The position numbers were made by a program, and so were the translations under genes. The notes beneath the pieces were generated by a model. It was not told where the DNA came from and searched no databases. It saw only the letters and a program-made list of their open reading frames with translations. This document shows positions 3,158-19,112 of a stretch of DNA of 64,000 bases, piece after piece. The stretch is from Candidatus Jorgensenbacteria bacterium (lineage in GTDB: Bacteria; Patescibacteriota; Minisyncoccia; UBA6257; GWB1-50-10): the NCBI GenBank assembly GCA_030648515.1, contig JAUSHK010000005.1, forward strand, positions 48,383 to 112,382, in the 5' to 3' direction. Position 1 is the first letter of the stretch, and every line of letters begins with the position of its first letter.

Positions 3158-3892
3158 CTACATCTCCGCTTCTTTTCTTAAGATATAGTTGGTGGACATA
3201 TCACCGCCGTCAACTGTAATAGTAGTGCCGTTTATATAACTTGATTTATCAGAGAGCAAAAAACTTACAACTTGAGCGATTTCCTCGTAGGTGCCGACTC
3301 TCTTAAGCGGATTAAGCGACGCGACTTCCTTAAGCAGTTCTTTCGGAGCTCCCATGCCGCCACCTATCCACCCGGGGGCAATGGCGTTCGTTCGTATCTT
3401 TTTCGGAGCGAGAATATTAGCAAGGCTTTGGGTTATATTAATGAGGGCTGCTTTGCTTGCGGAATAAGCCATGCCTGAAAAAGAACCAATCATGCCGTCG
3501 GTGCTTGAAATATTTACAATTGAAGCATCTTTTTCAAGATTTTCTTTTAAACCCTCTATTAATAAAAGCGGGGCATTTAAGTTAATCTCAAAAGTTTTTT
3601 CCCATACTTTCATATCAAAATTATTAAGGTCAACATCAATAAAAACGCCCGCACTATTCACGATTCCCTTGAAACGAAATTTGCCTAATTTTTGTATTAA
3701 AGCTTCTGTATTTTTCCTGTTGCTGAAATCACATTGAAACATCTCAATGTTTTTAAGTTTATTCTTGAGCTTCTCGGCTTCTTCTTTTCCCGTGTTATAA
3801 ATTCCATACACAAAATAACCCTCTTTTACCAAAAGTTGCGCGACTGCCTTACCCATTCCACTTGATACGCCGGTTACGAGAATGTTTTTCAT
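3158..3892 (-). CDS. Short-chain dehydrogenase/reductase (SDR) family oxidoreductase
   Basis: TGVSSGMGKA glycine-rich NAD(P)-binding motif at the N-terminus; catalytic YxxxK (YSASK). 244 aa. Confidence 0.8.
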   Translation of the reverse strand: MKNILVTGVSSGMGKAVAQLLVKEGYFVYGIYNTGKEEAEKLKNKLKNIEMFQCDFSNRKNTEALIQKLGKFRFKGIVNSAGVFIDVDLNNFDMKVWEKTFEINLNAPLLLIEGLKENLEKDASIVNISSTDGMIGSFSGMAYSASKAALINITQSLANILAPKKIRTNAIAPGWIGGGMGAPKELLKEVASLNPLKRVGTYEEIAQVVSFLLSDKSSYINGTTITVDGGDMSTNYILRKEAEM

Positions 3893-3917
3893 AAGTTGAT
3901 TATAGCAATTTCTCGTA

Positions 3918-4382
3918 TTATAAAATTTTAAGTTCGGAGAGCCATTCTTTCCAGACGGGTTCTATGCCGGGCGATGATTGCCACTCCGTTTCGCTTATTT
4001 TCCCCAAAATATAGTTTTCTGTTCTCTCGGCAAGTTTGCGAATTTGCTCTTTTGTATACCAGCCGTATTGCTTGGTTTCACTTGGGCTTGCTGTAACCTT
4101 CCCTTCTGTTTTCACTTCAAAGATTTTCCAGTAATGCCATGTGCCGTCCTCGCGCCTGCAAGGATTTTCTTTTCTGCCTTCGGCAAGTAATGTAATTTTT
4201 TTGGCATTGAGACCAACTTCTTCTTCAACTTCCTTCCGTGCCGCATCTTCAAAAGACCCATGGTCGTCAATGTGGCCGGCGGGAGGAGCAAAACCATACG
4301 GCGGCTTGCGCCGTTCAATAAGAAGTAGTTTGTCGCCATCCCAAATAAGCATTCCGACGCTTTTATGGTCGCAAATCGCCAT
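3918..4382 (-). CDS. Nudix hydrolase
   Basis: Nudix-box-like segment GHIDDHGSFEDAARKEVEEEVGL. 154 aa. Its stop lies 1 nt from the start of the upstream gene (4384), suggesting translational coupling. Confidence 0.6.
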   Translation of the reverse strand: MAICDHKSVGMLIWDGDKLLLIERRKPPYGFAPPAGHIDDHGSFEDAARKEVEEEVGLNAKKITLLAEGRKENPCRREDGTWHYWKIFEVKTEGKVTASPSETKQYGWYTKEQIRKLAERTENYILGKISETEWQSSPGIEPVWKEWLSELKIL

Positions 4383-4383
4383 A

Positions 4384-4791
4384 TTACGCTATTTTTGTAA
4401 GGTCGCCGTTCAGTACGACTGGCTCAACTGTCAGTATCTCGTCCTCAATATATTTTTGGCTGGGAATTGCGTTTAATAGATAGATTTTCTTATCCCGATA
4501 GTGCGCGAAACCAACTTCAAGAAACGTGTTTGCCCCGATGTAATTTTCAACTTCCCCTTTCGTAATATTCATGACAAGAATGGCGTCTGATTTTTCTATT
4601 TTATCCATGTGTTCCGATATAAGCCCCAATTTCTTTTTTGCCTGAACCCGGCCGGCATTATCCTTAGACCAATAATCAACGCCGTCGGCTTTTATTGGCA
4701 TGAGAACTGTGTGGCCCATTTGCTCAAGCTTACCTTTCACTCCGAGCATTTGGTCAAAGAATTTTATAGATCCGCAAACGGTAATAGTCAT
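4384..4791 (-). CDS. Nucleoside 2-deoxyribosyltransferase-like / LOG-like (SLOG-type Rossmann) small protein, paralog 1
   Basis: 135 aa. Motif NYIGANTFLEVGFA...KKIYLLN resembles the GxT(A/F)xExG(Y/F)A glycine-rich site of the NDT/LOG clan. Clear paralog of 16002..16412. Confidence 0.5.
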   Translation of the reverse strand: MTITVCGSIKFFDQMLGVKGKLEQMGHTVLMPIKADGVDYWSKDNAGRVQAKKKLGLISEHMDKIEKSDAILVMNITKGEVENYIGANTFLEVGFAHYRDKKIYLLNAIPSQKYIEDEILTVEPVVLNGDLTKIA

Positions 4792-4829
4792 GTTTGTATT
4801 ATACTTTATTTTTCGTTTTATTCTATGAC

Positions 4830-5879
4830 TTATACGGTCTGAACTGGCCCGCCTTGATTTGTGCGGTTCAATTTGCGCGAGCGCTGGTACGCTTCAATCT
4901 CACTTAATTTAAGCGCTGTTGTGGTGTTTCCTGTGCGCACATAGAAGTGTTCGTCATTGTCTGTTTTTAAATATACCGGCATTCTACTTTTAAGCGTCTG
5001 GACGACGCAGAGGTTTGTTTGCCCAGCGCTCGGAAACCATAGTTTCACAAGGTGGCGGAACTCCGGTCCGATCATGACGTTAAATACTTGCGTGAAATGA
5101 TTCTCAAATCCGTCGCTGTTCTGATGCTGGAGTGTTTGGTAATCATTCATAAGCCCAATCGGTTCCCGCGCGTTGTTTACGCCTATCACAAGCTCGCCGC
5201 CGTGCGAGTTCAAAAACGCGGCAACCGTTTTCATTGCCGCTTTTTCTAAATCGCGGTTCATTTTGCCGCTATGGTGGTCAAAACGAAGAGATGATTTGAA
5301 TTCAAGGTGCTCGTGCTCTTCAGTTCCAAGAAGTTTCTGCACGTCGGGCGCGGTAAAGCTGTCCCGTTCCGGGTTTATGCATTCTTCTATCGTCTCCACG
5401 AGTTCATCCGGCCGCGAAACATCTGCGATGACAAATGCCGTACCGGAAGAATCGTCTTTAATGCGAATTGAGCCATAATGAAACAGTTTCCCTGGTAGAT
5501 TAGAAGAAACGGTTGCCGTCATGGATTTTTTGAGTGAAACCGCAGTATTCTTTTTCAAGAAGACGCCGCGCTGATGCGAAATAATCCCAGGGCCCGCGGA
5601 ATATGACTCAAAATACCAGCGCGCGAACGCGTAGATAGTAACAAAAAGCTGTACGCCAGCAAGAAATATGAGCTTCGCAATGCTGTATGGAAGCACGCCG
5701 GAAAAGAAGAACGACTGCGTGTAGAGGTCGTATTTGTAGCTGCCGCCGCCGAGGACGAGGAGATATGCGATGAATATAAGAAGCTCTATCCCGATAAACG
5801 TTCGGACGAGAATAAATGGGCTTTTTTTGATTGTTACTACAGTATCGCCCAAACTCTTCATGTATCTAGTGTAAAACAA
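4830..5879 (-). CDS. Membrane protein with N-terminal bPH_2-like (YdbT-like) membrane domain and C-terminal AlbA_2 (Schlafen-type putative nucleic-acid-binding) domain
   Basis: Two TM helices, then a PH-like segment (SYSAGPGIISHQRGVFLKK...HYGSIRI). The C-terminal region EHEHLEFKSSL...MKTVAAFLNSHGGELVIGVNN...HFYVRTGNTTTALKLSEIEAY matches the AlbA_2 signature (E..LEFK ... AFaN..GG.l.iGv). Confidence 0.5.
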   Translation of the reverse strand: MFYTRYMKSLGDTVVTIKKSPFILVRTFIGIELLIFIAYLLVLGGGSYKYDLYTQSFFFSGVLPYSIAKLIFLAGVQLFVTIYAFARWYFESYSAGPGIISHQRGVFLKKNTAVSLKKSMTATVSSNLPGKLFHYGSIRIKDDSSGTAFVIADVSRPDELVETIEECINPERDSFTAPDVQKLLGTEEHEHLEFKSSLRFDHHSGKMNRDLEKAAMKTVAAFLNSHGGELVIGVNNAREPIGLMNDYQTLQHQNSDGFENHFTQVFNVMIGPEFRHLVKLWFPSAGQTNLCVVQTLKSRMPVYLKTDNDEHFYVRTGNTTTALKLSEIEAYQRSRKLNRTNQGGPVQTV

Positions 5880-5962
5880 AATTTAATTGGAGCAAAGGAA
5901 GATGCGACTTCTTCTTTGTGAACGAAGCTTTATTGCAAAAAGGCTAATTTTGATTTTTATGA

Positions 5963-6697
5963 TTAGTTTTGTAAGTCTTGTTGATGCGTCTTGGTTTCTG
6001 GTGTTTGAAGATTAATAATTTCTTTGTTGTTAGAATTTTTTTGCTCTATCTGTTGTTGTTTGATTTTAGTTTTATCTTCTGCTCTTTTTGAAAATAATGA
6101 CGACAAATCTTTGTTATGCAGCCATTCTTGGGGCGCTGGTATTATTTGATTTTTAAAACTCTCAGTAGTTTTATCTTCTAATGTCTGAATCATCATTCCA
6201 ATAATCATTAAAAAATTACCTCTTGGATTAATCATTTCCGACACTATGCGCCCCCTAGATCCTTCCGGAAATAAATTTCTACCTTTCTTGTATACTTCTG
6301 ATACGCTCTGAGAAGACGAGACTAGACTTTCTAGAAAATCTTTTATTCTTCCGGTATTAAAACTTGAGCCATAAACATTATGCGCAAAGTCATTTCTCAT
6401 TTTTCTTATTATGTTAAAATTTTGTGTAAATTTTGCACTTATTAAGCCAAGTCTAAATGCTAACTGAATCTTCGAATTAAATGTTGACACTGGCGCGTTA
6501 TTTTGATCAAATAGTTCATCCTCACTAGTCGTCGTAGGAGCCAAGTGAGATTTCAAGAGGGTGGTTAAAGTATTTTCTAATAATGATACCGATAATATAG
6601 CAGCAGCACGATCTGTTTCTTTTGAAAATTCATTTATAAGAAAGTCCCCTTTTTCCCACGTTGTTTCATGTGAAGATTGGTTATTTGCGTTTTCCAT
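5963..6697 (-). CDS. HEPN-superfamily protein, MtlR/Abi-like (Rx4H motif RNDFAH) with Q/K/N-rich low-complexity C-terminal tail
   Basis: Segment FNSKIQLAFRLGLISAKFTQNFNIIRKMRNDFAHN carries the HEPN Rx4-6H signature. The gene sits in a strongly AT-rich stretch (5880-6760), unlike its flanks. Confidence 0.5.
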   Translation of the reverse strand: MENANNQSSHETTWEKGDFLINEFSKETDRAAAILSVSLLENTLTTLLKSHLAPTTTSEDELFDQNNAPVSTFNSKIQLAFRLGLISAKFTQNFNIIRKMRNDFAHNVYGSSFNTGRIKDFLESLVSSSQSVSEVYKKGRNLFPEGSRGRIVSEMINPRGNFLMIIGMMIQTLEDKTTESFKNQIIPAPQEWLHNKDLSSLFSKRAEDKTKIKQQQIEQKNSNNKEIINLQTPETKTHQQDLQN

Positions 6698-6755
6698 GTT
6701 TTTATTTTATTATTTTAGTACTTCTAAATCTTTTTTGATACTACATTTATCCTAA

Positions 6756-7673
6756 TTAGCCTCTACTCAACCAATCAGCTATCGTTTTTGCCAGCTGTTT
6801 CTCGCGGCCCTTAAATCCGTGGTCCGCGCCTTTAATAATCCGGTAATCTAGTTTCGGTTGATACTGTTTCAGTATCTCAACAATTTTTGGCACATTGCCC
6901 CAGGCGTACTGGTCTTTATCTCCGTATACGACAAGGGATTGTTTTTTGATGGATTTGAAATACCGAAAGAGCGGTTTTGTTGAAAGCTTCTTTTTCCGAA
7001 GAACTTCGTAGAACGGAAATGTGTTATAGTCCCCATCTGGATTTGCTGCGTCATAAAATCCAGCGTAGGAAAATATTTCGTCAGGCAGAATTTCTTTGAT
7101 AATTTCTCCGCCTCGCTTGGCTTTTATTTTTCTTTTGGCCTCGGAGAGAAGTCTTGAGAACCTGGATTTTCCCAATATATCGTAATAGATGCCGGTATCG
7201 TCGCCTCCGCAAAGAAGAACGTATTTTTTGATGTCGTTTTTCGGCTTATAGAAGTTGTAAACGCAAATCTTATTCGCGCCCGTTGAAGTGCCGATGAGAT
7301 AAAACTCGCGATAGCCCCGTTCTTTAAGAAAAGAAATAGCTCCATCAATATCAGGCACGCATTCTTTTATTTTTTCGTACGCCATTCCAAACAGTTTCCG
7401 TTCATCTTTATTACCACGCTTTACATAAAGATTTTTAATAACGTGCGCTCCCCTATTATTGAAATAAAGGGTTGAAATATTTTTCTCGGCCCAGGCGGAA
7501 GCGAGTATGCTATTTTTTGCTTTGTTGTAAAAAACCGACGAGCCCATACCATGCAAACAGATAGCGACGGCTTTTCCCTTTTTCGCTTTGTATAAAAGCC
7601 CGGGAAGCGTAAGCCCGTCTTTTGTTTGAAATTCCACAAATTCCGGCTGTACGGCGGTGTTTTTCATACTCAA
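6756..7673 (-). CDS. Alpha/beta-hydrolase fold protein (esterase/dienelactone-hydrolase-like)
   Basis: Nucleophile elbow GTSTG (GxSxG). HGMGSS near the N-terminus. 305 aa. Confidence 0.55.
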   Translation of the reverse strand: MSMKNTAVQPEFVEFQTKDGLTLPGLLYKAKKGKAVAICLHGMGSSVFYNKAKNSILASAWAEKNISTLYFNNRGAHVIKNLYVKRGNKDERKLFGMAYEKIKECVPDIDGAISFLKERGYREFYLIGTSTGANKICVYNFYKPKNDIKKYVLLCGGDDTGIYYDILGKSRFSRLLSEAKRKIKAKRGGEIIKEILPDEIFSYAGFYDAANPDGDYNTFPFYEVLRKKKLSTKPLFRYFKSIKKQSLVVYGDKDQYAWGNVPKIVEILKQYQPKLDYRIIKGADHGFKGREKQLAKTIADWLSRG

Positions 7674-7737
7674 TTCAATTGTATGCCGTCGCGGAGAATT
7701 GGTCTACCTGCAGAATTTATGACATAATGACATTACA

Positions 7738-8598
7738 ATGAAAGTATTGAATACGGCATGGTTTATCGCGTTATTGCTTTGTGTTTCTGTGGTTCTAAAA
7801 AGCGCGAGCGCGGCGGCAGATTTTACATTTACACGTAATCTTTCTCTAGGAATTCGCGGAGACGATGTGTCCGCCTTACAACAATTTTTAATTGCCGGCG
7901 GTTTTCTAAAAATTCTTACCCCGACCGGCTACTTCGGCCCCCTTACAACAACCGCTCTTGGCGCGTGGCAGACATCAGTGAGTATTTATCCTCCCGCAGG
8001 TTTTTTCGGCCCTATTTCAAGGGGGAAAATCAACACGGTTGCTCAACAAGCGCCGATCAGTGCAACTTTGGCGAAAGATGCCGTAGGAACAACGACTATT
8101 ATTGCTGAAACAACGAGTACAGCGGTTGTAAATATTATTGACGGGTCTCCGGTTCGCCTCAAAATCCCAAAGCTTAACATTGACGCGGGCTTTCAATATA
8201 ACGGCCTTAAGTCCGATGGGACAATGGAGATACCAAACAATGTTACTGACGTAGGGTGGTTTACAGGCAGTCCGCGCCCCGGAGAAAAAGGGAGTTCTAT
8301 TGTTACCGGACATGTTGCCCAAATACGCGGAGGGATAATGACGAAACCTGGAGTGTTCAGTAATTTGAGCGAATTGAAAATCGGAGACAAATTGTACGTT
8401 CTAAACGACAAAGGAGAATCCATTGCTTTCGTTGTCCGCGAAAGCCGCGTTTATGACCCAACGGCCGACGCCACCGATATTTTTACGCCCGGAGACGGCG
8501 GAATTCATCTTAACCTTATCACCTGCGAGGGTTCCTGGAATCCGGAGAAATTAAGCTATACCCAAAGATTGGTGGTATTCACTGACGCCGTGCAATAA
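7738..8598 (+). CDS. Secreted sortase-family transpeptidase (class E/F-like) with N-terminal peptidoglycan-binding domain
   Basis: Signal peptide; PG_binding_1-like segment (GDDVSALQQFLIAGGFL...GYFGPLTTTALGAWQ). Sortase catalytic triad context TGH ... LNLITC ... R. Confidence 0.65.
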   Translation: MKVLNTAWFIALLLCVSVVLKSASAAADFTFTRNLSLGIRGDDVSALQQFLIAGGFLKILTPTGYFGPLTTTALGAWQTSVSIYPPAGFFGPISRGKINTVAQQAPISATLAKDAVGTTTIIAETTSTAVVNIIDGSPVRLKIPKLNIDAGFQYNGLKSDGTMEIPNNVTDVGWFTGSPRPGEKGSSIVTGHVAQIRGGIMTKPGVFSNLSELKIGDKLYVLNDKGESIAFVVRESRVYDPTADATDIFTPGDGGIHLNLITCEGSWNPEKLSYTQRLVVFTDAVQ

Positions 8599-8615
8599 CT
8601 TTCCTCCCCTGTTTA

Positions 8616-9503
8616 TTATTTTGTATAGTATCCAAAAAGCGCTTTGATGCCGGCCAAATTTCGCTCCCACTCAACCGTCTCGTGAGTTTTAAGCTCAACT
8701 GTGATTGCCGGAATGTTGATTGAAGCAAGCCACCCTTCGGCGTCGCCCGTAATCTCGTAGGCGCTAAAAGAATCAACTGCCGGATATCCCGACGCGTGCG
8801 AATACGCCCCAATAATTTCAAGCGTCTTCGGAAGAATTCCTCTTTCGCATTCTGACGCGTACACGGCGTTTGACTGGCTGTGCCAAAACACGACAGCGGC
8901 CGGATTATTTTTAAAAACAAAATCACGAATAGCACGAGTTTCCGGCTCGGAGAACGGCGCCGTCCCCGCGCTTACAACATTTCCCTGCCACATGCTTTCC
9001 GGCTTCCACTTACAATCAAAATTGCGATTCAGGTCAACTTTATGCGCGTTGAAGCGCCCCGGCGCTTCGGAGACGCCCACGGGCACATCTGGGGCGGTGA
9101 AGCGCCCTTCCTTGCCGATTACTTTATATACCCCATCAGGATTAGCGGACGGAATCACGGCAACGGTCAAATTCGCGGGAATGGCTTTTGGATTAGCGTT
9201 AAGATAATCCATAAATGCGTACGCTAAAAGCACGCTGTTCCACTCATAGCCGCCGTGCACGCCGCCCACAAATGCCAGAAGCGTTTTTCCGCTTCCGTAT
9301 GTATACGATTCGATTTGTCGGCCTTCCACTGATAAACCTATTACGTTGCGTTTTGGAGCGTAATTTTCTGTTTTAACCGGCACTATCGTTACTGGCTTTG
9401 GCGTGCTGCCGCTTCGCAATAAAATAAATATAAGCAAACCGACGCCGAGCACGGCAATAACAATGGCCGCAATGACACGTTTAGTCCGCAAGAGGCTTAC
9501 CAC
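8616..9503 (-). CDS. M14-family zinc carboxypeptidase-like protein, membrane anchored (tandem paralog A)
   Basis: N-terminal TM; motifs VGGVHGGYEWN, NPDG and DLNRNFDC typical of M14 / gamma-D-Glu-DAP peptidase-like enzymes. Paralogous to 9507..10427. Confidence 0.6.
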   Translation of the reverse strand: MVSLLRTKRVIAAIVIAVLGVGLLIFILLRSGSTPKPVTIVPVKTENYAPKRNVIGLSVEGRQIESYTYGSGKTLLAFVGGVHGGYEWNSVLLAYAFMDYLNANPKAIPANLTVAVIPSANPDGVYKVIGKEGRFTAPDVPVGVSEAPGRFNAHKVDLNRNFDCKWKPESMWQGNVVSAGTAPFSEPETRAIRDFVFKNNPAAVVFWHSQSNAVYASECERGILPKTLEIIGAYSHASGYPAVDSFSAYEITGDAEGWLASINIPAITVELKTHETVEWERNLAGIKALFGYYTK

Positions 9504-9506
9504 AAA

Positions 9507-10427
9507 TTATTTGGCGTAGTATTTAAGCAAGGCTTCAATGCCAGCCTGATTTTTACTCCATTCAGTATCCGTATGATTTTTAAGAAGAACGCTTATTGCG
9601 GGAATGTTGCTTTTCGCGAGCCAATTTACCATATCGCCGGTTATTTCGTAGAAGTTAAAACTCTCGTAGGCGGGGTACCCCGAGGCATCCGCAAATTTTT
9701 TAGTAATCGTGTTCGTCTCCGGCAAAACACCATTGTGACAGTTTGACGCGAATACACCATTTGCCGCGCTATACCAAACCACTACTGCTTTTGGTTTTTG
9801 AGTTTCAATATAATTTTTAATCGCGAGGCTTTCTGGCTCAGAAAATACAGAGCTTCCACCGCTCACTTTCGTATTCTGCCATTTTGCGCTTTCTTGCCAG
9901 TCACAGTCAAAATTGCGATTGAGGTCAACATTGTTCGCGTTAAAACGGCCTGATGTCTGGATGGCTTGCGACGATGACACCTGAGATGCTGTAAACCGCC
10001 CTGTCGTGCCGATAACTTTATAGAGTCCGTCCGGATTCAAAACCGGTATGACAGTTGCTCTCACATTTGCCGGAATGATGGTCGGGTTCGCCTTCAAATA
10101 ATCCATCGCTTCGTAAGCGACAAGCGCCGTATTCCATTCATATCCGCCGTGTATTCCGCCGACAAACAAAATCTCCGCGTCACCAGTACCATAATGATAC
10201 GCGGTAATATCGCGGCTCTCTACTGATTTTCCAATTACCGATTCTCCCTTGTTTGTAACCGACGTTTCGCCAGTTTGGGCGTCATCCTGCGACTGGGTTA
10301 CGCTGCCTGATATATTCGCATCCTGAACTTTCCCAACATCCGCCGTATTAAATGAGCCACGAATGACAAAATACGCACCGGCGCCAATGATAACCACGAC
10401 TAGAAACACGATGATGATGTTTTTCAT
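9507..10427 (-). CDS. M14-family zinc carboxypeptidase-like protein, membrane anchored (tandem paralog B)
   Basis: Same motifs (VGGIHGGYEWN, NPDG, DLNRNFDC). 4-nt spacing to paralog A. Confidence 0.6.
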   Translation of the reverse strand: MKNIIIVFLVVVIIGAGAYFVIRGSFNTADVGKVQDANISGSVTQSQDDAQTGETSVTNKGESVIGKSVESRDITAYHYGTGDAEILFVGGIHGGYEWNTALVAYEAMDYLKANPTIIPANVRATVIPVLNPDGLYKVIGTTGRFTASQVSSSQAIQTSGRFNANNVDLNRNFDCDWQESAKWQNTKVSGGSSVFSEPESLAIKNYIETQKPKAVVVWYSAANGVFASNCHNGVLPETNTITKKFADASGYPAYESFNFYEITGDMVNWLAKSNIPAISVLLKNHTDTEWSKNQAGIEALLKYYAK

Positions 10428-10471
10428 AATGACTTTAGTGTAGCACTATATTCTCATATTTCCTATAGCCC

Positions 10472-11395
10472 TCAATCAAAAATATTAATGAGATATGCGT
10501 CAATGTCTCTCTGGTCCATATCGTAAAAATTCAGTTTGTTGTCATGGAGATACGTTGCGAATTTTACGCCTACAAAGCGCCAATGCCACGGCTCGTAGAC
10601 GTAGTGGGTATTGCCTTTCGGATAAGAAATCTCAAAGCCAAAACGATACGCATTAGCGAGAAGCCATTGATAGGCCTGCGTGTTTTCAAAGCCCTCGGTT
10701 TGGCCGCCAAGTCCGGTAGTGATGAAATCCAATGTCGTTCCAAGCTGGTGCTCTGAATAACCCTGGTCCGCCGCGAACGAGTTGGCGGTGCCTGCGCCGT
10801 AAATAACGGTATATAAAGATTTAAGCGATTGCTGTTCTGCAAACGACCGGTAAGCGGATTCCGCGTAGAGCGCAATTCCGTTTGATTTTGCCGCATCAAA
10901 TAAGTTTTTAAGAAACGGCCATGCCTCCGTTAGGAATTGTTCCGAACTTGATTCCTTGTATAAATAATCGGCCGGCATACTAATCAGGTGCGGCGGCGTA
11001 TAATTTTCATTCAAAAAATATACTTTGGAATATTTTTTGAGAAGTTCAGGGTCAATTTTTGAAAGTTTTTGAAGCGTGCCGACGGTGCCGGAAATTGAAC
11101 CGACGGTCTGTTCAACTCCGCCAACCTGCGTTTTAACGGCGTCAATATTTTGCTGAGCGCTTGAGAGCGTATCGGAAAGTCCGGTGGTTTGCGAGCGCAG
11201 GTCCGCAAGATTTTTCGCAAGCTGGCCCGTATTCTGTGATAGCGTCGCGGTTGTAGACGCGAACTCCGTTGTAAGAGACCCTATCTGTTCCGTTAACGCG
11301 GAAATCCGCAGAAACCCGTAAACAAAAAGGCCGCCGAGCACGACAAAAACAATCCCTGCGGGGATTATATACGGCAAAAATCTTTTATATCCCAC
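10472..11395 (-). CDS. D-alanyl-D-alanine carboxypeptidase, VanY / peptidase M15B family, with N-terminal TM and coiled-coil repeat region
   Basis: Motifs YRSFAEQ, SEHQLGTTLD and YEPWHWRF (VanY zinc-binding H/D/H context). Confidence 0.7.
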   Translation of the reverse strand: MGYKRFLPYIIPAGIVFVVLGGLFVYGFLRISALTEQIGSLTTEFASTTATLSQNTGQLAKNLADLRSQTTGLSDTLSSAQQNIDAVKTQVGGVEQTVGSISGTVGTLQKLSKIDPELLKKYSKVYFLNENYTPPHLISMPADYLYKESSSEQFLTEAWPFLKNLFDAAKSNGIALYAESAYRSFAEQQSLKSLYTVIYGAGTANSFAADQGYSEHQLGTTLDFITTGLGGQTEGFENTQAYQWLLANAYRFGFEISYPKGNTHYVYEPWHWRFVGVKFATYLHDNKLNFYDMDQRDIDAYLINIFD

Positions 11396-11443
11396 GCAAA
11401 AGATTATACCGCATTTTCACCCAAATTTGAATTCAATTGATAA

Positions 11444-12037
11444 CTATTTTTTTCTTTGAATCTCGAGCCAATCCGGCGTCGGGATAAAAGTAATTTCTTT
11501 CCACGCGTCTATTTCTTTTTCCGTAACATTAAAATATTTTTGGTACGCGGTTTCTACACTTCCATGCATAGCTTGCGACCAGTCAAAACCCAATTTATCT
11601 ACTCCATCCTTAACTTCTTCCTCGGTTGACGCTTCAAATTCTACAAAAGAGGGAATCCATGGCCACGTATCAATGGTAATTTCGCAATCATTTAGTTTCC
11701 AAGTTTCGCGGCGCGTTTCTTGATATGAGCTTTGTTTTAATCCTATTGCTAAAAAAATATTACAGGCATCGTCAAAGTTATCCGCCGTAATGGTTATTTC
11801 TTTGGTTCCATACAAAGAGCGGTCCAATAGGCGCTTATAGCTAACTGTTATTTTATCTCCTTCGTCCCGTACTCTAATCCACGCGCCTTCTTTTTCCAAC
11901 CGTTCATCCGGGAAATCAAAAACCTTGCGCTTCATAAGGCGCTCGGCAGTAATTAAAATTGCCCCGACCTCAATGAGTTTCTTGCGAAATAATACCGGGT
12001 CTATATCTAAAAATTTGGCTTCTAATTCGGTTTTCAT
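11444..12037 (-). CDS. CYTH-domain protein (class IV adenylyl cyclase / triphosphatase fold)
   Basis: N-terminal EAKF motif (MKTELEAKFLDI), then acidic/basic residue pattern of the CYTH tunnel. 197 aa. Confidence 0.55.
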   Translation of the reverse strand: MKTELEAKFLDIDPVLFRKKLIEVGAILITAERLMKRKVFDFPDERLEKEGAWIRVRDEGDKITVSYKRLLDRSLYGTKEITITADNFDDACNIFLAIGLKQSSYQETRRETWKLNDCEITIDTWPWIPSFVEFEASTEEEVKDGVDKLGFDWSQAMHGSVETAYQKYFNVTEKEIDAWKEITFIPTPDWLEIQRKK

Positions 12038-12040
12038 TAC

Positions 12041-12709
12041 TCAGTTGAATTCAAAGTATTTACCTCCGCCGATTACTTTAACTTTTCCGTCAACAACTTT
12101 CAAGGCAGATTGATCATCAAGGGCGTAGGTTTTTTTGGTTATTTCTTTTATAACTTCTTTTATGGTGGCATCCATTCGTGCTGGGAAGTACGGGGAATTA
12201 AGGTGCGGCAAAAAATAGAAATCTACAAAGCCGAGCCCCGCCATAGCACTTTCTTCGGTGTCGTCCCCATATATTGCCCGGGAGAGCCTTAGTCCAAGGT
12301 CGGGAGCAGTTACCATACTCCCCGCACTGACACCGACATAAACTTTTGTCTTGAGTAATTCCGGCAAAATCTTCACTAGTCCAGATGTGTTAATCCACCT
12401 CATAAGATGGTACGTGTTGCCTCCCTCAAAAAACAAAACGTCAGCTTCTTCAATCTGTGGCCTCCAAATGTTTTCCGGAACGGCAGAAATATCAACTATC
12501 GCAATGGACTTAAATCCCTGCTTTTTGATGTTTATAAGGTCATTAATAAGCCAGTCCTTGTCCCCAACTTCCACATTCGCGGCCGTTGGGATGAAAGCAA
12601 CTGAGGTCTCGGCCGCTGGCTTCCCAACTAATTCAAACAGCCCTTTTGCGATTAATTGATTGGAAATCCCGCCTGATGTTAGTAACAATTTCATAAAGTT
12701 ATTATACAT
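12041..12709 (-). CDS. Peptidase S51 (dipeptidase E / cyanophycinase-like) family protein
   Basis: Motifs FFEGGNTYHL and GVSAGS (catalytic Ser elbow). 222 aa. Confidence 0.65.
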   Translation of the reverse strand: MYNNFMKLLLTSGGISNQLIAKGLFELVGKPAAETSVAFIPTAANVEVGDKDWLINDLINIKKQGFKSIAIVDISAVPENIWRPQIEEADVLFFEGGNTYHLMRWINTSGLVKILPELLKTKVYVGVSAGSMVTAPDLGLRLSRAIYGDDTEESAMAGLGFVDFYFLPHLNSPYFPARMDATIKEVIKEITKKTYALDDQSALKVVDGKVKVIGGGKYFEFN

Positions 12710-12926
12710 TAGCTGGCACGATTGGACGAGTTTCGAATGACAGATTTGGCAAGTTTGTTTGAGGGTTTTAAAAAACCATGGAGAAAATCAAAGAATTATT
12801 TTGTTTACTTGTTTAGAATAGCGGGAATTTTACACAGGAGAAAGAATGGAAATATTGCCATAAATAAAAAACCGCCTTCCAAGAATACTCATTGGTCGGC
12901 GGCGAGATACAAGGGATTGATTTTTA

Positions 12927-13520
12927 CTACGAAGAAACAACCAGGACGAGCGGAATTTTGTATGCATCCGCGACTTCCTTGAGACGCTCCCATACGTCCA
13001 CATAACGGCCTTCCGGACAGTAATGCCTCATCACGCCATCGGTAATAATAGCAGCTGGAAGAGTCATTGGTTCTTTACCTGAAAAAAGCTGCTTGCAGTT
13101 GTAAAAACGTGTCCAAAAGAGCCCCACGTCGCGGCTGAATTCCCACGTGTTTGAACCATCGAATTTGAAACCGGCGTTCGCGCACGCATTGCTGACTTTC
13201 AGGGGAATTTGCCGAACGGGACTCGACGGCTTTACGCCGGCAAAACCCATTTTTTCAAATCCAATTGTTGAACTGCAAACAAGAATTCTACCGGATGAAA
13301 CCGCGTTCCCCGGCATGATACTCTCGCTCCACGGATTATTCTCCCAAGGATTCGCAGAAAATGCCTCATAACCGCCGTCACTGTTCTTGGGAGGGGGTGT
13401 TTGGCCATCTCCGGTTAGGACCATCCAATGCCAGAGATCATGGTTTGTTACTTCCCGTTTTTTTTCTCCTAAGCTCGAAAGCCACTCGAGCACTTCAATT
13501 CTTCCTTTTTCAAGATTCAC
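12927..13520 (-). CDS. Hypothetical Trp-rich protein
   Basis: 197-aa ORF in a normal-GC region. No confident motif; weak resemblance of SNTWEF to the GNVWEW motif of FGE-like proteins, but motif order does not fit. Confidence 0.35.
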   Translation of the reverse strand: MNLEKGRIEVLEWLSSLGEKKREVTNHDLWHWMVLTGDGQTPPPKNSDGGYEAFSANPWENNPWSESIMPGNAVSSGRILVCSSTIGFEKMGFAGVKPSSPVRQIPLKVSNACANAGFKFDGSNTWEFSRDVGLFWTRFYNCKQLFSGKEPMTLPAAIITDGVMRHYCPEGRYVDVWERLKEVADAYKIPLVLVVSS

Positions 13521-13656
13521 GGGACTTCTCCTTTTTTGGTATATGTTTGACTATTTGAATGTTTCTAAATGAATTGTATCACATATATACCATTTGTCAA
13601 TCAGCTAGATTTTTAATAGCTTTAGAGCTGTTTGTCTGTTATGATGGGTTTTAACA

Positions 13657-14919
13657 ATGGAAACTAAAAGAGATTTTTATGGGCTCGGTATCGCGCCTGG
13701 CATTCTCCAAGTTCTTACCAAACTTGGTTTTAATACGCCAACTCCGATTCAAGAGCAGGCTATTCCAATCGCGATTGAAGGCAAGGATTTAGTGGGTGTT
13801 GCCCAAACCGGCACCGGGAAGACCCTCGCCTTTGGCATACCCTTGATTCAGCATGTCCTTCGTGGCGCTGGCACAGGTCTTGTTATCGTACCCACGCGCG
13901 AGCTCGCCCTGCAGATTGACGAGACCTTCCGCGGAGTCGGTACGCCGCTTAATTTGAGAACTGCTGCTCTTATCGGCGGGGAATCCATTTCCAGGCAAAT
14001 TCGGGACCTCCATCGCAGCCCGCAGGTTATTATCGGTACGCCTGGCCGGATTCTTGACCATCTCGCGCAAAGAACGCTTTCTCTTCAAAAAATAAGCATA
14101 TTGGTTCTTGATGAAGCCGATAGGATTTTGGATATGGGTTTTGCTCCCCAGTTGAAACGCATTCTTTCTGCTTTGCCGCGTAATCGGCAGACGATGCTGT
14201 TTTCTGCGACAATGCCGGAACAAATCATTAGGATGGCCAAAGAATATTTGAAACTCCCAATTAGGGTTGAAATCGCGCGCTCTGGCACGACCGTGAAGGA
14301 CGTTACTCAGGAATTGTTTTTCGTTCTTCAGGAAGAAAAACCTCGACTTTTGGAAAAAATTCTTCAGGAATATCGGGGTTCAGTACTGGTTTTTTCGCGC
14401 ACGAAACACAGCGCGAAAAAAATAGCCGCCTTGCTGCGCGCTTTAGGGCATACTGCCGCCGAGATTCACAGTAATCGTTCCCTGGGTCAGAGGAAAGAAG
14501 CTCTTGAAGGATTCAAAACTGGAAAATATCGGGTCCTCGCGGCAACGGATATTGCGGCGCGAGGGATTGACGTGACAAATATCGAACTCGTACTGAATTA
14601 CGATTTACCAGAGAATGCCGAAGATTATGTCCATCGGATCGGCCGCACGGCCCGGGCTGGTGTAAGAGGCCACGCCATTTCCTTTGCCCGCCCGAACCAG
14701 AAGAGAGACGTTCAGGCAATCGAAAAACTGATTAAAAAAACATTGCCCGTTTCCAAAATTCCGACTCTTCCCCCGCCCACGCCCTTTAAATTCAAAATAG
14801 AAAGGCCAGAGCGCGGTTTTTTCCCACACGGCCGGAGAAGTTCTTTTCACTCTCGCGGCCGCGGAAATTCTAAATTCGGAGGCAAACGGCCGCATTCCAA
14901 TTTTTTCAGGGGAAAGTAA
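13657..14919 (+). CDS. DEAD-box ATP-dependent RNA helicase with basic RGG-like C-terminal tail
   Basis: Q-motif region, GVAQTGTGKT (Walker A), VLDEAD, SAT, HRIGRTAR. Confidence 0.9.
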   Translation: METKRDFYGLGIAPGILQVLTKLGFNTPTPIQEQAIPIAIEGKDLVGVAQTGTGKTLAFGIPLIQHVLRGAGTGLVIVPTRELALQIDETFRGVGTPLNLRTAALIGGESISRQIRDLHRSPQVIIGTPGRILDHLAQRTLSLQKISILVLDEADRILDMGFAPQLKRILSALPRNRQTMLFSATMPEQIIRMAKEYLKLPIRVEIARSGTTVKDVTQELFFVLQEEKPRLLEKILQEYRGSVLVFSRTKHSAKKIAALLRALGHTAAEIHSNRSLGQRKEALEGFKTGKYRVLAATDIAARGIDVTNIELVLNYDLPENAEDYVHRIGRTARAGVRGHAISFARPNQKRDVQAIEKLIKKTLPVSKIPTLPPPTPFKFKIERPERGFFPHGRRSSFHSRGRGNSKFGGKRPHSNFFRGK

Positions 14920-14949
14920 GTATTATCTCTTTTAAAGTAAACTCTCGCG

Positions 14950-15912
14950 CTATTTTTCTGACTTAATAACGTTCAAGATTTTTTCCACTTTTTTGATGCT
15001 TTCGGAATCGTCCGTGGAAATCGCGATCGCGTCCGGCTTTATTTCTTTCAGCGCTTTTAATTTTGTCTCAACGGACTTTTTATCCATAAGGTCGCTTTTC
15101 GTGAGAAAAAGATATTCGCGCTTTTCGAGAAGTTTTTTGTTGTAAGCGCCGAGTTCCTTACGGATTATTTCATAATCTTTTTGGATTGAGGCGGACTCCA
15201 CCGAAATCAAATGGAAAAGTATTTTTGTGCGCTCCACGTGCTTCAAGAATTTTATTCCCATGCCTTTGCCCTTGGACGATTCTTCTATGAGTCCGGGGAT
15301 GTCGGCCAGAATAATTTCGTAATAAACGCCAAGATTAGGTTCCAAAGTAGTGAAAGGATAATTCGCCACTTTGCTTTTGGCGTTTGTGAGTTTATTAAGC
15401 AAGCTTGATTTACCTACGTTAGGAAGTCCTACGAAGCCGACATCAGCGATTAGTTTTAATTCGAGGCGAAGCGTAAAATTTTCTCCCTGCAGTCCGTGCT
15501 GGAATTGCTTAGGGGTAGTATTTCTGGACGAACGGAAGTGAAAATTGCCCTTTCCTCCCCTGCCGCCTTTAGCCAGAAGCAGGCGCTCGCCGATTTTTGT
15601 TGTTTCAACTTCTGTCCCGGTCGTCAGATTATGGATTACTGTGCCCACGGGAACCTTCAAAACAAGATCGTCGGCGTCCGCGCCGTCCTTAAATTGCCCT
15701 CTCCCTGGTCCCCCATTCTTTGCTTTAATTTCTTTTTTATATCTAAATTGGCCCAAAGCGTTCAAATCAGAAACACCCTCGCAATAGATGCCACCGCCCT
15801 TGCCGCCGCTCGTGCCCGTCGGCCCCAAACTCATCGAATTCGTATTAAAAGCTACTGCGCCGTTTCCACCGTTACCAGCGGCTACTTTTATAACAACGTC
15901 ATCGATTAACAT
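14950..15912 (-). CDS. obg: GTPase Obg (lacks the long C-terminal extension)
   Basis: Gly-rich Obg fold (GGNGGNGAVAF, GGKGG) followed by G-domain GLPNVGKSSLL. Confidence 0.85.
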   Translation of the reverse strand: MLIDDVVIKVAAGNGGNGAVAFNTNSMSLGPTGTSGGKGGGIYCEGVSDLNALGQFRYKKEIKAKNGGPGRGQFKDGADADDLVLKVPVGTVIHNLTTGTEVETTKIGERLLLAKGGRGGKGNFHFRSSRNTTPKQFQHGLQGENFTLRLELKLIADVGFVGLPNVGKSSLLNKLTNAKSKVANYPFTTLEPNLGVYYEIILADIPGLIEESSKGKGMGIKFLKHVERTKILFHLISVESASIQKDYEIIRKELGAYNKKLLEKREYLFLTKSDLMDKKSVETKLKALKEIKPDAIAISTDDSESIKKVEKILNVIKSEK

Positions 15913-16001
15913 AGAATTGTTTTAGTAGTATAAGGGTTCTTGTGTCAACTTTTCAATCTTATTCTTGTTGGCTGACACAATGGGACAATACAGGAATCCT
16001 T

Positions 16002-16412
16002 CTAAATGACTTTGTGTAAATCTCCATTAATAACCTCAACACCCATACCAATCAATTCGTCTTTGAAATTAGATTCAGGAATTGGATTATATAAATATGC
16101 CTTTTTCCCAGAATCAAATGCTCTAAAAATTTCTAGAAAAGTAGCCCCTCCAATATAATTCGGCTGTCCATTTTTTTCAAAATTTAATACTAAAACACAA
16201 TCATTTGCGTCTACTTTCTCTTTTTGCAACCGAATCATATTCCCTTTCCATTTCCTATGTTCCTCAATCCCTAAATTTTTAATTTCTTCCTCCTTCATTG
16301 GCTCATCATAACTATTTGGAACAGTTATGATGTGTCCCATAACCTCAAGTTCATTTTTGATCTTTGTAACATAACAATAGTTATGTTTACTTGCACAAAT
16401 AAGTATTTTCAT
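16002..16412 (-). CDS. Nucleoside 2-deoxyribosyltransferase-like / LOG-like small protein, paralog 2
   Basis: 136 aa. NYIGGATFLEIFRAFDSGKKAYLYN aligns with paralog 1 (4384..4791), sharing MGH, IP and NGDL positions. Confidence 0.5.
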   Translation of the reverse strand: MKILICASKHNYCYVTKIKNELEVMGHIITVPNSYDEPMKEEEIKNLGIEEHRKWKGNMIRLQKEKVDANDCVLVLNFEKNGQPNYIGGATFLEIFRAFDSGKKAYLYNPIPESNFKDELIGMGVEVINGDLHKVI

Positions 16413-16443
16413 AGATTGAATATGTTATGTATGAAATTAATTG

Positions 16444-16514
16444 CTGCGGGACAGGGATTCGAACCCCGATACCGTGCTCCAGAGGCACGAGTCCTACCAT
16501 TAGACGATCCCGCA
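16444..16514 (-). tRNA. tRNA-Gln (anticodon CTG)
   Basis: Hand-folded cloverleaf. Acceptor stem U1-A72 is typical of bacterial tRNA-Gln (TGCGGGA/TCCCGCA). D loop AATGGTA, anticodon loop CTCTGGA, T loop TTCGAAT, discriminator G. No encoded CCA. Confidence 0.75.
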
Positions 16515-16760
16515 ATGATTCTCAATCTGCCTTATTATCGTTTCTTTTTCAATGCGACAATCCTTGACCTTATGTTCATATTCCCTTGCCTCCTTCTCCA
16601 ATTCAAATTTTCTCGTAAAAACTAGCTCAAAAGGTTTATAAGGTTTTGTCGATTTAACTCTACCACTATTATGCTCACAAAGTCTTTCGTCCAATCTATT
16701 GGTACTTCCTGTGTAATACCATTCTCTTTGTTTACTTTTTATAATATAAACATACCACAT
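16500..16760 (-). CDS. GIY-YIG nuclease family protein (UPF0213/YhbQ-like), overlapping the 5' end of tRNA-Gln
   Basis: YVYIIKS...YTGSTNRLDERLCEHN matches the GIY-(x10)-YTG core. Start taken at Met26 of track ORF 16500..16835, because the upstream codons are read through the duplicated tRNA fragment. The stop TAA is tRNA positions 13-15. Confidence 0.6.
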   Translation of the reverse strand: MWYVYIIKSKQREWYYTGSTNRLDERLCEHNSGRVKSTKPYKPFELVFTRKFELEKEAREYEHKVKDCRIEKETIIRQIENHCGIV

Positions 16761-16766
16761 GTTACA

Positions 16767-16808
16767 GACTACCATTAGACCTGCCTGCGCAGGCAGGCGA
16801 TCCCGCAA
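16767..16808 (-). repeat. Partial duplicate of tRNA-Gln positions 1-21, interrupted by an 18-nt perfect palindrome (CCTGCCTGCGCAGGCAGG)
   Basis: 16798-16808 equals tRNA nt 1-10 (plus 1 nt upstream). 16769-16779 equals tRNA nt 11-21. The 18-nt palindrome 16780-16797 lies between them. Confidence 0.7.
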
Positions 16809-16901
16809 CATATAGAAATTAAACAGCAAAAACACTTAAAAATCAATAAAAACAGCCCTTAGCATGAAAGCGCTAAGGGCTATGTGATACGAGATATAAA
16901 A

Positions 16902-17769: not shown

Positions 17770-18390
17770 TTATTTAATACAAAACTCTCTCTCGACGGGC
17801 TTGATAACGACGATCATACCTCCCTGTTTTATAATTGAGTAGACGTTTTTATTTGGAATTTCACCGCTTGTAGACTTTACTATTACGCCCTTTTCGTAGG
17901 ATATTTGGAAAGCGGGTTCGTCAAAAAGTTTCATTTGTTTTTCTTTCTTCTCTTTTTCCTCTTTTCGTAGAATTTCTTCATCTCTGCACTGGGTCATGTC
18001 TATAATTTGAACCGTCAATTGGCCCACGACGTTTATACCTGGCAGAAATAAAAAAATTTCTCTTGGAATCCTCTCGATAAATAACCACACATTCTCTGAT
18101 ATGGATTTAATAGCTTCCGGCGATGGGAACTCCCACTTCTTATCGGAAAAATTAGGGTATTCCAGCACTTCCTGCGTGGGTAATTCTGATCTTATTATTT
18201 CGCAAGTGTCTTTTAGATAACGATTCTTGCCCCTTAGAATGGTTACTCCGCTACTATTTTCGTCAATCTCCTTTTTCATTTTCCCAACTGCGTGCTCAAT
18301 TTGTTCTTTTCCAATTGGTGATATCCCGTGGTTTGCCATAAAATCCCCAGGGGAAACCATGATTACTTTCTTATTCTTGCTTACCTCCAT
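17770..18390 (-). CDS. Hypothetical protein in AT-rich island (weak histidine-phosphatase-like N-terminus, ANHGIS instead of RHG)
   Basis: 206-aa ORF. Local GC is clearly lower than the flanks. No confident family assignment. Confidence 0.4.
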   Translation of the reverse strand: MEVSKNKKVIMVSPGDFMANHGISPIGKEQIEHAVGKMKKEIDENSSGVTILRGKNRYLKDTCEIIRSELPTQEVLEYPNFSDKKWEFPSPEAIKSISENVWLFIERIPREIFLFLPGINVVGQLTVQIIDMTQCRDEEILRKEEKEKKEKQMKLFDEPAFQISYEKGVIVKSTSGEIPNKNVYSIIKQGGMIVVIKPVEREFCIK

Positions 18391-18590: not shown

Positions 18591-19112
18591 TTAATTAAGT
18601 GCAGTAAGGTATTTATTTCTTACCCACTTCAAATTCGGGAAATAAAACGAAAAAATCCCAAGCGGTGTTATGATGAATAGCTGTTTTAGCTTTTCTTTGA
18701 AATCCCTTTTAAAACTGAATTTCGTCACTATAATTTGTCCATTAAAAAGCTTTTTAGCAGAAAGTTTTACAACGCTCGCGTATGCCTCTCCGCAAAAAAT
18801 AATAATTTCGTTTTCAATTGTAATATTGAACATTTCAATTTTTTCCAAATTTTTCCGTGCGGATTCCAGCTCTTCGGTGATTGCTGAATTGTTTCCCATT
18901 TCTAAAACGGTTCTGCCCATACTAAGCGACTCGTATTTTAGCAATAAACTTTTTAGTTTTTCTTCTTTTGGAACTGACTCTGCGCCTGTTTCAACAATTA
19001 TCATCCTCGTTGCGACATACGTCTTCATTTGCTCGGTAATAAAATCTACGAATCTTAAACGCTTTTCCAGGTTATTAAATCCGTTTCCTATCACAATAAC
19101 AAATTTTGCCAT
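18591..19112 (-). CDS. Hypothetical protein in AT-rich island
   Basis: 173-aa ORF, low GC. Followed by a structured 3' region and a strong terminator. Confidence 0.4.
   Translation of the reverse strand: MAKFVIVIGNGFNNLEKRLRFVDFITEQMKTYVATRMIIVETGAESVPKEEKLKSLLLKYESLSMGRTVLEMGNNSAITEELESARKNLEKIEMFNITIENEIIIFCGEAYASVVKLSAKKLFNGQIIVTKFSFKRDFKEKLKQLFIITPLGIFSFYFPNLKWVRNKYLTALN

Follow-up and report, generated by a model that had tools for sequence, protein, structure and literature searches.

HepS, encoded by the Salmonella prophage Gifsy-1, is a solo HEPN protein of 212-218 amino acids (aa) in which R100, N101 and H105 are functional (PDB 9oij and 9oik; PMC13043305). It has no partner genes and is produced constitutively as an inactive resting tetramer, which is opened by binding of the phage J tail-tip protein and then cuts tRNA anticodon loops, and it is not toxic when overexpressed without this trigger (PMC13043305). 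RAZR, a one-protein defence with a DUF4145-type HEPN domain and an essential R and H, is activated by phage proteins (PMC13017515). MtlR has been placed in the DUF4145-like assemblage, with the HEPN motif present in about 60% of members, and the motif-bearing members of its family were predicted to be active ribonucleases (RNases), MtlR proper being a non-catalytic derivative (Anantharaman et al. 2013, PMC3710099). Here we compare with these systems a gene for a stand-alone HEPN protein in a 64,000-nucleotide (nt) stretch of contig JAUSHK010000005.1 from Candidatus Jorgensenbacteria; the whole stretch is referred to as the window. The gene lies in an AT-rich spacer between the gene for a DUF1749-type hydrolase and that for an AlbA_2-domain protein:

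5862..6755, no strand assigned: AT-rich spacer of 894 nt between the hydrolase and AlbA_2 genes, recognised by tblastn/blastn synteny with the relative L009, by the alignment of the junctions and by a GC content of 0.317

5963..6697, minus strand: coding sequence (CDS) of a solo HEPN protein of the MtlR/DUF4145 clade, 244 aa, with an ATG start and including the stop codon, read from the open reading frame (ORF)

The encoded protein, which is 100% identical to NCBI Q7R98_02580 from a 278-kb contig, is very probably an acquired HEPN protein of the MtlR clade. We read the locus as a single-gene, horizontally acquired cassette for a stand-alone MtlR/DUF4145-like HEPN protein that retains the full catalytic signature (R101-N102-x3-H106 together with E27, D29 and R30). 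To the whole chain, which runs from an acquired HEPN RNase to a role in defence as a HepS-like sensor-effector and draws on analogy, we assign a probability of roughly 0.55. Taken separately, catalytic competence as an RNase appears likely from the sequence, whereas the odds that the protein acts as a defence or abortive-infection sensor-effector, as the analogy would have it, are about even.

Using the flanking hydrolase as a query against species-representative genomes, we collected 49 loci, the closest of which (L009) comes from a Patescibacteria metagenome-assembled genome (MAG). Its hydrolase, AlbA_2 and HAD proteins share 85%, 82% and 92% aa identity with those of the window, and the order and orientation of the genes are the same. 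The distance from the stop codon of the hydrolase gene to the ATG of the AlbA_2 gene is 65 nt in L009 as against 894 nt in the window. The part of the spacer left unaligned by blastn was 5886-6763; nucleotide homology reaches 6764 on one side; on the other it restarts at 5885, and a weak similarity extends to about 5914. The extra segment of about 830 nt carries the HEPN gene only, with 58 nt upstream and some 50-75 nt downstream of the CDS, and a second credible ORF was not found in 5862-6755, the only others being AT-rich antisense ORFs that overlap the CDS. On this comparison, the AT-rich segment with the HEPN gene stands out as an insertion between the DUF1749-type hydrolase and AlbA_2 genes.

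A HEPN homologue within 10 kb was found at none of the 49 hydrolase loci, so the gene is not a universal occupant of this position in related genomes. An insertion in the lineage of the window appears more likely than a deletion in L009: the segment by which the two differ is exactly the one of anomalous composition, and the gene was seen at none of the 49 loci. The AlbA_2 promoter was probably left intact by the event, because TAAATTTTGTTTTACACTAGA is conserved upstream of AlbA_2 in both genomes. Target-site duplications were not recognisable at the junctions, there was no integrase at the insertion site and no tRNA gene near it, the nearest being tRNA-Gln at 16443. A 14-nt imperfect inverted repeat (AGGCTAATTTTGAT at 5941-5954 and ATCCTAATTAGCCT at 6749-6762) flanks the insertion, with one arm overlapping the stop codon of the hydrolase gene. 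It is 1 of 19 comparable pairs in the same AT-rich kb and was treated as probably due to chance, a recombination scar being the less likely alternative.

An earlier note on this DNA had described the CDS and its flanks as AT-rich amid genes of ordinary GC content, and had taken this as a sign of recent horizontal acquisition. The anomaly is pronounced: the GC content of the CDS is 0.329 and that at third codon positions (GC3) is 0.265, both the minimum among the 52 long ORFs of the window (mean GC 0.459, standard deviation 0.040; mean GC3 0.475, standard deviation 0.058), which gives z = -3.2 and z = -3.6, respectively. The value of 0.317 for the spacer compares with 0.454 for the window as a whole, the bin 6001-7000 is the lowest in GC of its 64 1-kb bins, and the flanking AlbA_2 and hydrolase genes have ordinary values of 0.476 and 0.417. 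While GC and GC3 single out the gene among the window ORFs, the codon-usage log-likelihood did not place it among the six most atypical ones. At 54 homologue loci, the family gene had a lower GC content than the flanks in 94% of cases, with a mean gap of 8.5 GC points. AT-richness thus characterises this mobile gene family as a whole and is not simply a clock of recent transfer, and because the trait is family-wide it gives by itself no recent date.

Within the protein, we distinguish the following features:

6155..6667, minus strand: HEPN core domain, residues ~11-181, all-helical

6608..6622, minus strand: helix-1 motif K26-E27-T-D29-R30, recognised by its conservation in homologues

6380..6397, minus strand: predicted catalytic motif R101-N-D-F-A-H106 (Rx4H with a polar residue after R), from direct reading, conservation in 100 homologues and the alignment with HepS

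6230..6262, minus strand: lineage-specific loop insertion of 11 residues, G146-I156 (GSRGRIVSEMI), opposite a gap in all 17 aligned homologues

5966..6115, minus strand: non-conserved Q/K/N-rich C-terminal tail, residues 195-244, recognised by composition and by its failure to align with homologue tails

The fold is that of the HEPN/MtlR proteins. The AlphaFold2 model of the monomer is all-helical, with a predicted local distance difference test score (pLDDT) of 83 and a predicted template modelling score of 0.70; it has the same fold as the solved structures of MtlR and YggD, and the protein has the features of the HEPN superfamily, an all-alpha helical bundle and Rx4-6H with a polar residue after R. 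Although Rx4H by itself is trivially common, RNDFAH (R101-H106) is the sole R-x4-6-H match in the protein and falls on the catalytic helix when aligned with HEPN structures. With its E-x2-R spacing, as compared with the Ex3[KR]-like spacing of the second, acidic HEPN motif of helix 1, K26-E27-T-D29-R30 is probably the counterpart of that motif and may share its functional role. As a protein of 244 aa with a single domain and RNDFAH, it falls within the definition by which solo HEPN proteins have been selected (at most 250 aa, one HEPN domain, RX4-6H; PMC13043305). It contains no cysteine.

Confidence in the model dips in blocks to a pLDDT of 57-69 over residues 131-150, a stretch into which the first part of the 11-residue insertion falls, and the tail is modelled as a helix at 196-227 with disorder beyond. 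Q, K and N make up 44% of the tail compared with 19% of the remaining protein, and its entropy is 3.48 as against 4.04 bits. The tails of homologues are 1-35 aa long, polar and unrelated to it in sequence; the tail of this copy is longer and contains an imperfect 29-nt tandem duplication at 6020-6081, which, together with an 8-nt AT repeat, was the only tandem repeat found by Tandem Repeats Finder. The Rx4H motif, the helical MtlR-like context and the low-complexity tail named in the earlier note were thus all recovered, and the predicted structure does contain a HEPN fold.

Assignment to a family required profiles at the family level, as the Pfam and NCBIfam scans with the single sequence remained below threshold (14.1 bits for PF05068 with a cut-off of 25.2, 17.8 for the NCBIfam MltR model NF008234 with a cut-off of 149, and DUF4145 likewise sub-threshold). 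A word-indexed search yielded 17 relatives with 31-53% identity, and those with a source name were from Nealsonbacteria and Aenigmarchaeota MAGs. The alignment of these 18 sequences showed E27, D29, R30, R101, N102, F104, A105 and H106 to be invariant, and its profile matched two MtlR structures in the PDB, 6kcr from E. coli (1e-6) and 3brj from Vibrio (5e-4), while 14 of the 18 sequences matched PF05068. A profile search of 1.84 billion cluster representatives recovered 13,853 proteins with E<=1e-3; the number falls to 10,362 when the limit is set at 1e-10 and to 708 at 1e-30. Nearly all of these proteins are 170-220 aa in size and have one matched stretch. Among 100 of the top-scoring homologues, N102 and H106 never vary and R101, E27 and R30 reach a conservation of 90% or more, a pattern that implies selection on catalysis. 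PF05068 was matched by 49 of these 100 (E<=1e-3) and DUF4145 by 22, so that the earlier description of the protein as MtlR/DUF4145-like is right at the family level. Within this very large, single-domain, motif-intact family of MtlR-like HEPN proteins, the window protein is in no way exceptional.

Many members of the family are borne by phages. The window protein matched phrog_22031 (E 1.4e-16) and phrog_5483 (8e-6), both of them PHROG families of unknown function, and relatives recovered with one exact peptide pattern are encoded on 52 IMG/VR contigs. On one of these contigs, the homologue is located between genes for a phage DNA polymerase and a primase, and on another between genes for a tape-measure protein and tail proteins. 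In isolated phages, gp48 of Burkholderia phage KS9 is a relative (hhalign probability 99.8%) that follows replication genes and precedes those for an HNH endonuclease and terminase; Klebsiella and Mesorhizobium phages match the family, as does an Agrobacterium phage protein in BFVD. The Nealsonbacteria homologue adjoins an N6_N4 methylase and HinfI restriction-modification pair, and one cellular homologue has a phage integrase one gene away. In one IMG/VR contig (L061), the family member at 5926-6462 is inserted in a phage tail module, with the tape-measure gene immediately before it and a J-like tail protein two small ORFs further on. In a 176-kb contig (L114, ENA contig_13), the calls around the homologue P0258 were very sparse, with 6 genes in 12.6 kb; the reason may be a non-standard genetic code or a source outside the prokaryotes.

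Three genes on each side were clustered for the 54 homologue loci, and no neighbour family occurred in more than 6 of them, those 6 being related prophages. An AlbA_2-like neighbour did not recur in the 54 loci. The earlier note had seen in the gene and its AlbA_2 neighbour a candidate defence or toxin module with no evident partner. That no partner is evident agrees with the lack of a conserved neighbour and of a second ORF in the insertion. The pairing is not borne out, and we reject AlbA_2 as a dedicated partner, since L009 has AlbA_2 without the HEPN gene and the association does not recur. A defence or toxin role is suggested by analogy. In its essentials, the interpretation given in the earlier note is supported.

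If HepS and other defences that consist of one HEPN protein are taken as models, the window protein would be made constitutively as an auto-inhibited oligomer. A protein of a phage or other invader may bind to this oligomer and rearrange it, upon which two R/N/H motifs would form a composite, metal-independent endoribonuclease site at the dimer interface. The enzyme would then cut tRNA or other RNA, so that translation stops and the infection is aborted. The conserved core would represent the cutting part, and sensing or oligomerisation and assembly may be the task of the variable polar tail.

Several observations weigh against this reading. The sequence similarity to HepS is not significant: the profile of 100 sequences aligned IRNKYAH with IRNDFAH at an E value of 0.08 and with 13% identity, a match that is no more than suggestive. 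The nearest solved structures, MtlR and YggD, are regulators and not nucleases, and several homologues are located amid housekeeping genes. No prophage, integrase or recognised defence genes were seen around the HEPN gene in the window, and the PADLOC (2023) models gave no hit for the protein, nor for either neighbour. The promoter and terminator scan detected no promoter-like or terminator-like site for the gene, and the model lacks terminal beta-strands like those implicated in the activation of HepS.

The alternative that survives best is a non-catalytic regulator of the MtlR/YggD type, in which the HEPN-like domain binds a partner protein or RNA and modulates the expression of other genes. 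It is favoured by MtlR and YggD being the best structural and sequence matches, by the housekeeping surroundings of several homologues and by the name 'DNA-binding MltR family transcriptional regulator' given to many relatives by the Joint Genome Institute (JGI). However, the motif is degraded in the solved MtlRs (3brj KNHLNS; 6kcr REELNH, without equivalents of E27, D29 and N102), whereas the clade of the window protein keeps the residues listed above. Mannitol or phosphotransferase system (PTS) genes were not found near the gene, the score against the NCBIfam MltR model is far below its cut-off, and a patchy, AT-rich and phage-borne distribution would be unusual for a housekeeping regulator. 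Motif-bearing MtlR members had, moreover, already been predicted to be active RNases (PMC3710099). We consider a regulator of this type unlikely, and the acquired HEPN RNase remains our preferred reading.

A still less probable explanation is that the gene is a functionless or decaying remnant, such as a phage 'moron' or another hitch-hiker that drift has fixed in the small genome of a symbiont. The gene is known from one contig only with a closest homologue that is 50% identical, and the lineage-specific insertion of 11 aa, the tail expanded by duplication and the lack of a clear promoter would all fit such an origin. Yet the gene has an intact reading frame and has lost none of the residues that are invariant in the family, and the core is modelled with high confidence; genomes of the Candidate Phyla Radiation (CPR) are small, and useless DNA is generally shed from them. 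Similarly improbable is the toxin of a toxin-antitoxin (TA) pair or addiction module whose antitoxin would be a small protein that escaped recognition, an RNA of antisense or structured type, or a factor encoded elsewhere, as the insertion has no second credible ORF besides antisense ones overlapping the CDS, the adjacent genes do not include an MNT nucleotidyltransferase, the 54 loci have no conserved neighbour, no tandem-repeat or Rfam RNA was found upstream (no Rfam match at E<=1 over 4500-8000), the 3' region is without significant structure (z = -0.8), and HepS, which among characterised solo proteins is the nearest relative, can be overexpressed without toxicity when its trigger is absent (PMC13043305).

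The neighbouring gene at 4830-5879 encodes a protein with an AlbA_2/Schlafen domain (PF04326, E 2.6e-16), a bPH_2 domain and hydrophobic N-terminal helices, in agreement with the AlbA_2/Schlafen-like membrane protein previously noted here. Its start is probably the ATG at 5861 and not the mechanically listed TTG at 5879, with the promoter-like TAAATTTTGTTTTACACTAGA upstream (window 5859-5893). Genes for an SDR protein, a NUDIX protein and a weakly Nuc_deoxyrib_tr-like protein are located at 3158-4791 between AlbA_2 and HAD, the SDR part being low in GC (about 0.35-0.39); L009 is without this block and has HAD directly after AlbA_2. The DUF1749-type hydrolase (6756-7673) has 70-77% aa identity to genes in MAGs (L010-L018) labelled Saccharibacteria, Liptonbacteria, Magasanikbacteria and even 'Gammaproteobacteria', a spread of labels that suggests frequent gene transfer or mis-binned contigs.

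On the other side, about 8.7 kb (7738-16434) separates the hydrolase gene from tRNA-Gln and contains genes for a sortase, three large ORFs, a CYTH protein, a PepE-like gene and a DEAD-box helicase, while in L009 the hydrolase gene is immediately beside tRNA-Gln. The region beside tRNA-Gln (16443-16514) is prone to rearrangement. An ORF with a GIY-YIG nuclease domain (16500-16835) directly adjoins the tRNA gene and is followed by two ORFs of low GC content without Pfam hits, at 17770-18390 (GC 0.385) and 18591-19112 (GC 0.339). The latter has the second-lowest GC in the window (z = -3.0), and its L009 copy is 47% identical.

The locus represents a clean, in principle datable acquisition of a single gene in a streamlined CPR genome, with the insertion mapped to within tens of bases by comparison with a relative. 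More broadly, thousands of annotations as 'MltR regulator' probably denote RNases, as the conservation pattern, the AT-bias and the association with phages point to HepS-like, RNase-based conflict functions. If the function were confirmed, one-protein HEPN immunity would extend to CPR and DPANN, and there would be a case for re-annotating thousands of proteins. The named hosts of the closest homologues are Jorgensenbacteria, Nealsonbacteria and Aenigmarchaeota. A distinct, CPR/DPANN-enriched branch of solo HEPN sensor-effectors, in which a hypervariable tail senses invaders or controls assembly, is nonetheless a doubtful proposition; if true, it would provide one-gene abortive infection for CRISPR-poor, ultra-small episymbionts, possibly aimed at the phages that infect them or even at host-cell RNA.

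Several known systems differ from the locus in one or more respects. Tandem-repeat or structured antitoxin RNAs, as in type III TA and AbiF-like systems, were not found beside the gene by Rfam and Tandem Repeats Finder. In HepT/MntA, the HEPN-MNT type II TA system, HEPN and MNT genes are paired, which is not the arrangement here; the window domain is also larger and closer to MtlR, and the C-terminal position of the motif that is typical of HepT was not seen. With the mannitol operon repressor family MtlR/YggD (PF05068; PDB 3brj, 6kcr and 3c8g), the protein shares the fold. MtlR proper is, however, gammaproteobacterial, linked to the mtl operon, HPr-binding and degraded in its active site, whereas the window protein keeps the full motif in a Candidatus Jorgensenbacteria host and has a DUF1749 hydrolase and AlbA_2 as neighbours in place of a mannitol or PTS context. 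The likeness to RAZR lies in the DUF4145-like HEPN domain, DUF4145 being matched by 22 of the 100 relatives; RAZR differs in its N-terminal Cys4 zinc ribbon and in the longer spacing of R146...H154, the window protein being cysteine-free and without an extra N-terminal domain.

HepS is the closest characterised analogue. The record of Gifsy-1 in LT2 contained no HepS-like ORF, and a tblastn search with a HepS fragment gave no match in the phage collection. The window protein differs from HepS in its long Q/K/N-rich tail and in a model without N- or C-terminal beta-strands. HepS is borne by a prophage, whereas the window gene is an isolated insertion in a CPR bacterium with no prophage around it, although its family is often phage-borne. 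What the two have in common is that each is a stand-alone protein with a single HEPN domain and RX4-6H, no longer than 250 aa and encoded without a conserved partner gene. The family to which this otherwise ordinary gene belongs thus already has, in HepS, an analogue that is characterised in both structure and mechanism.

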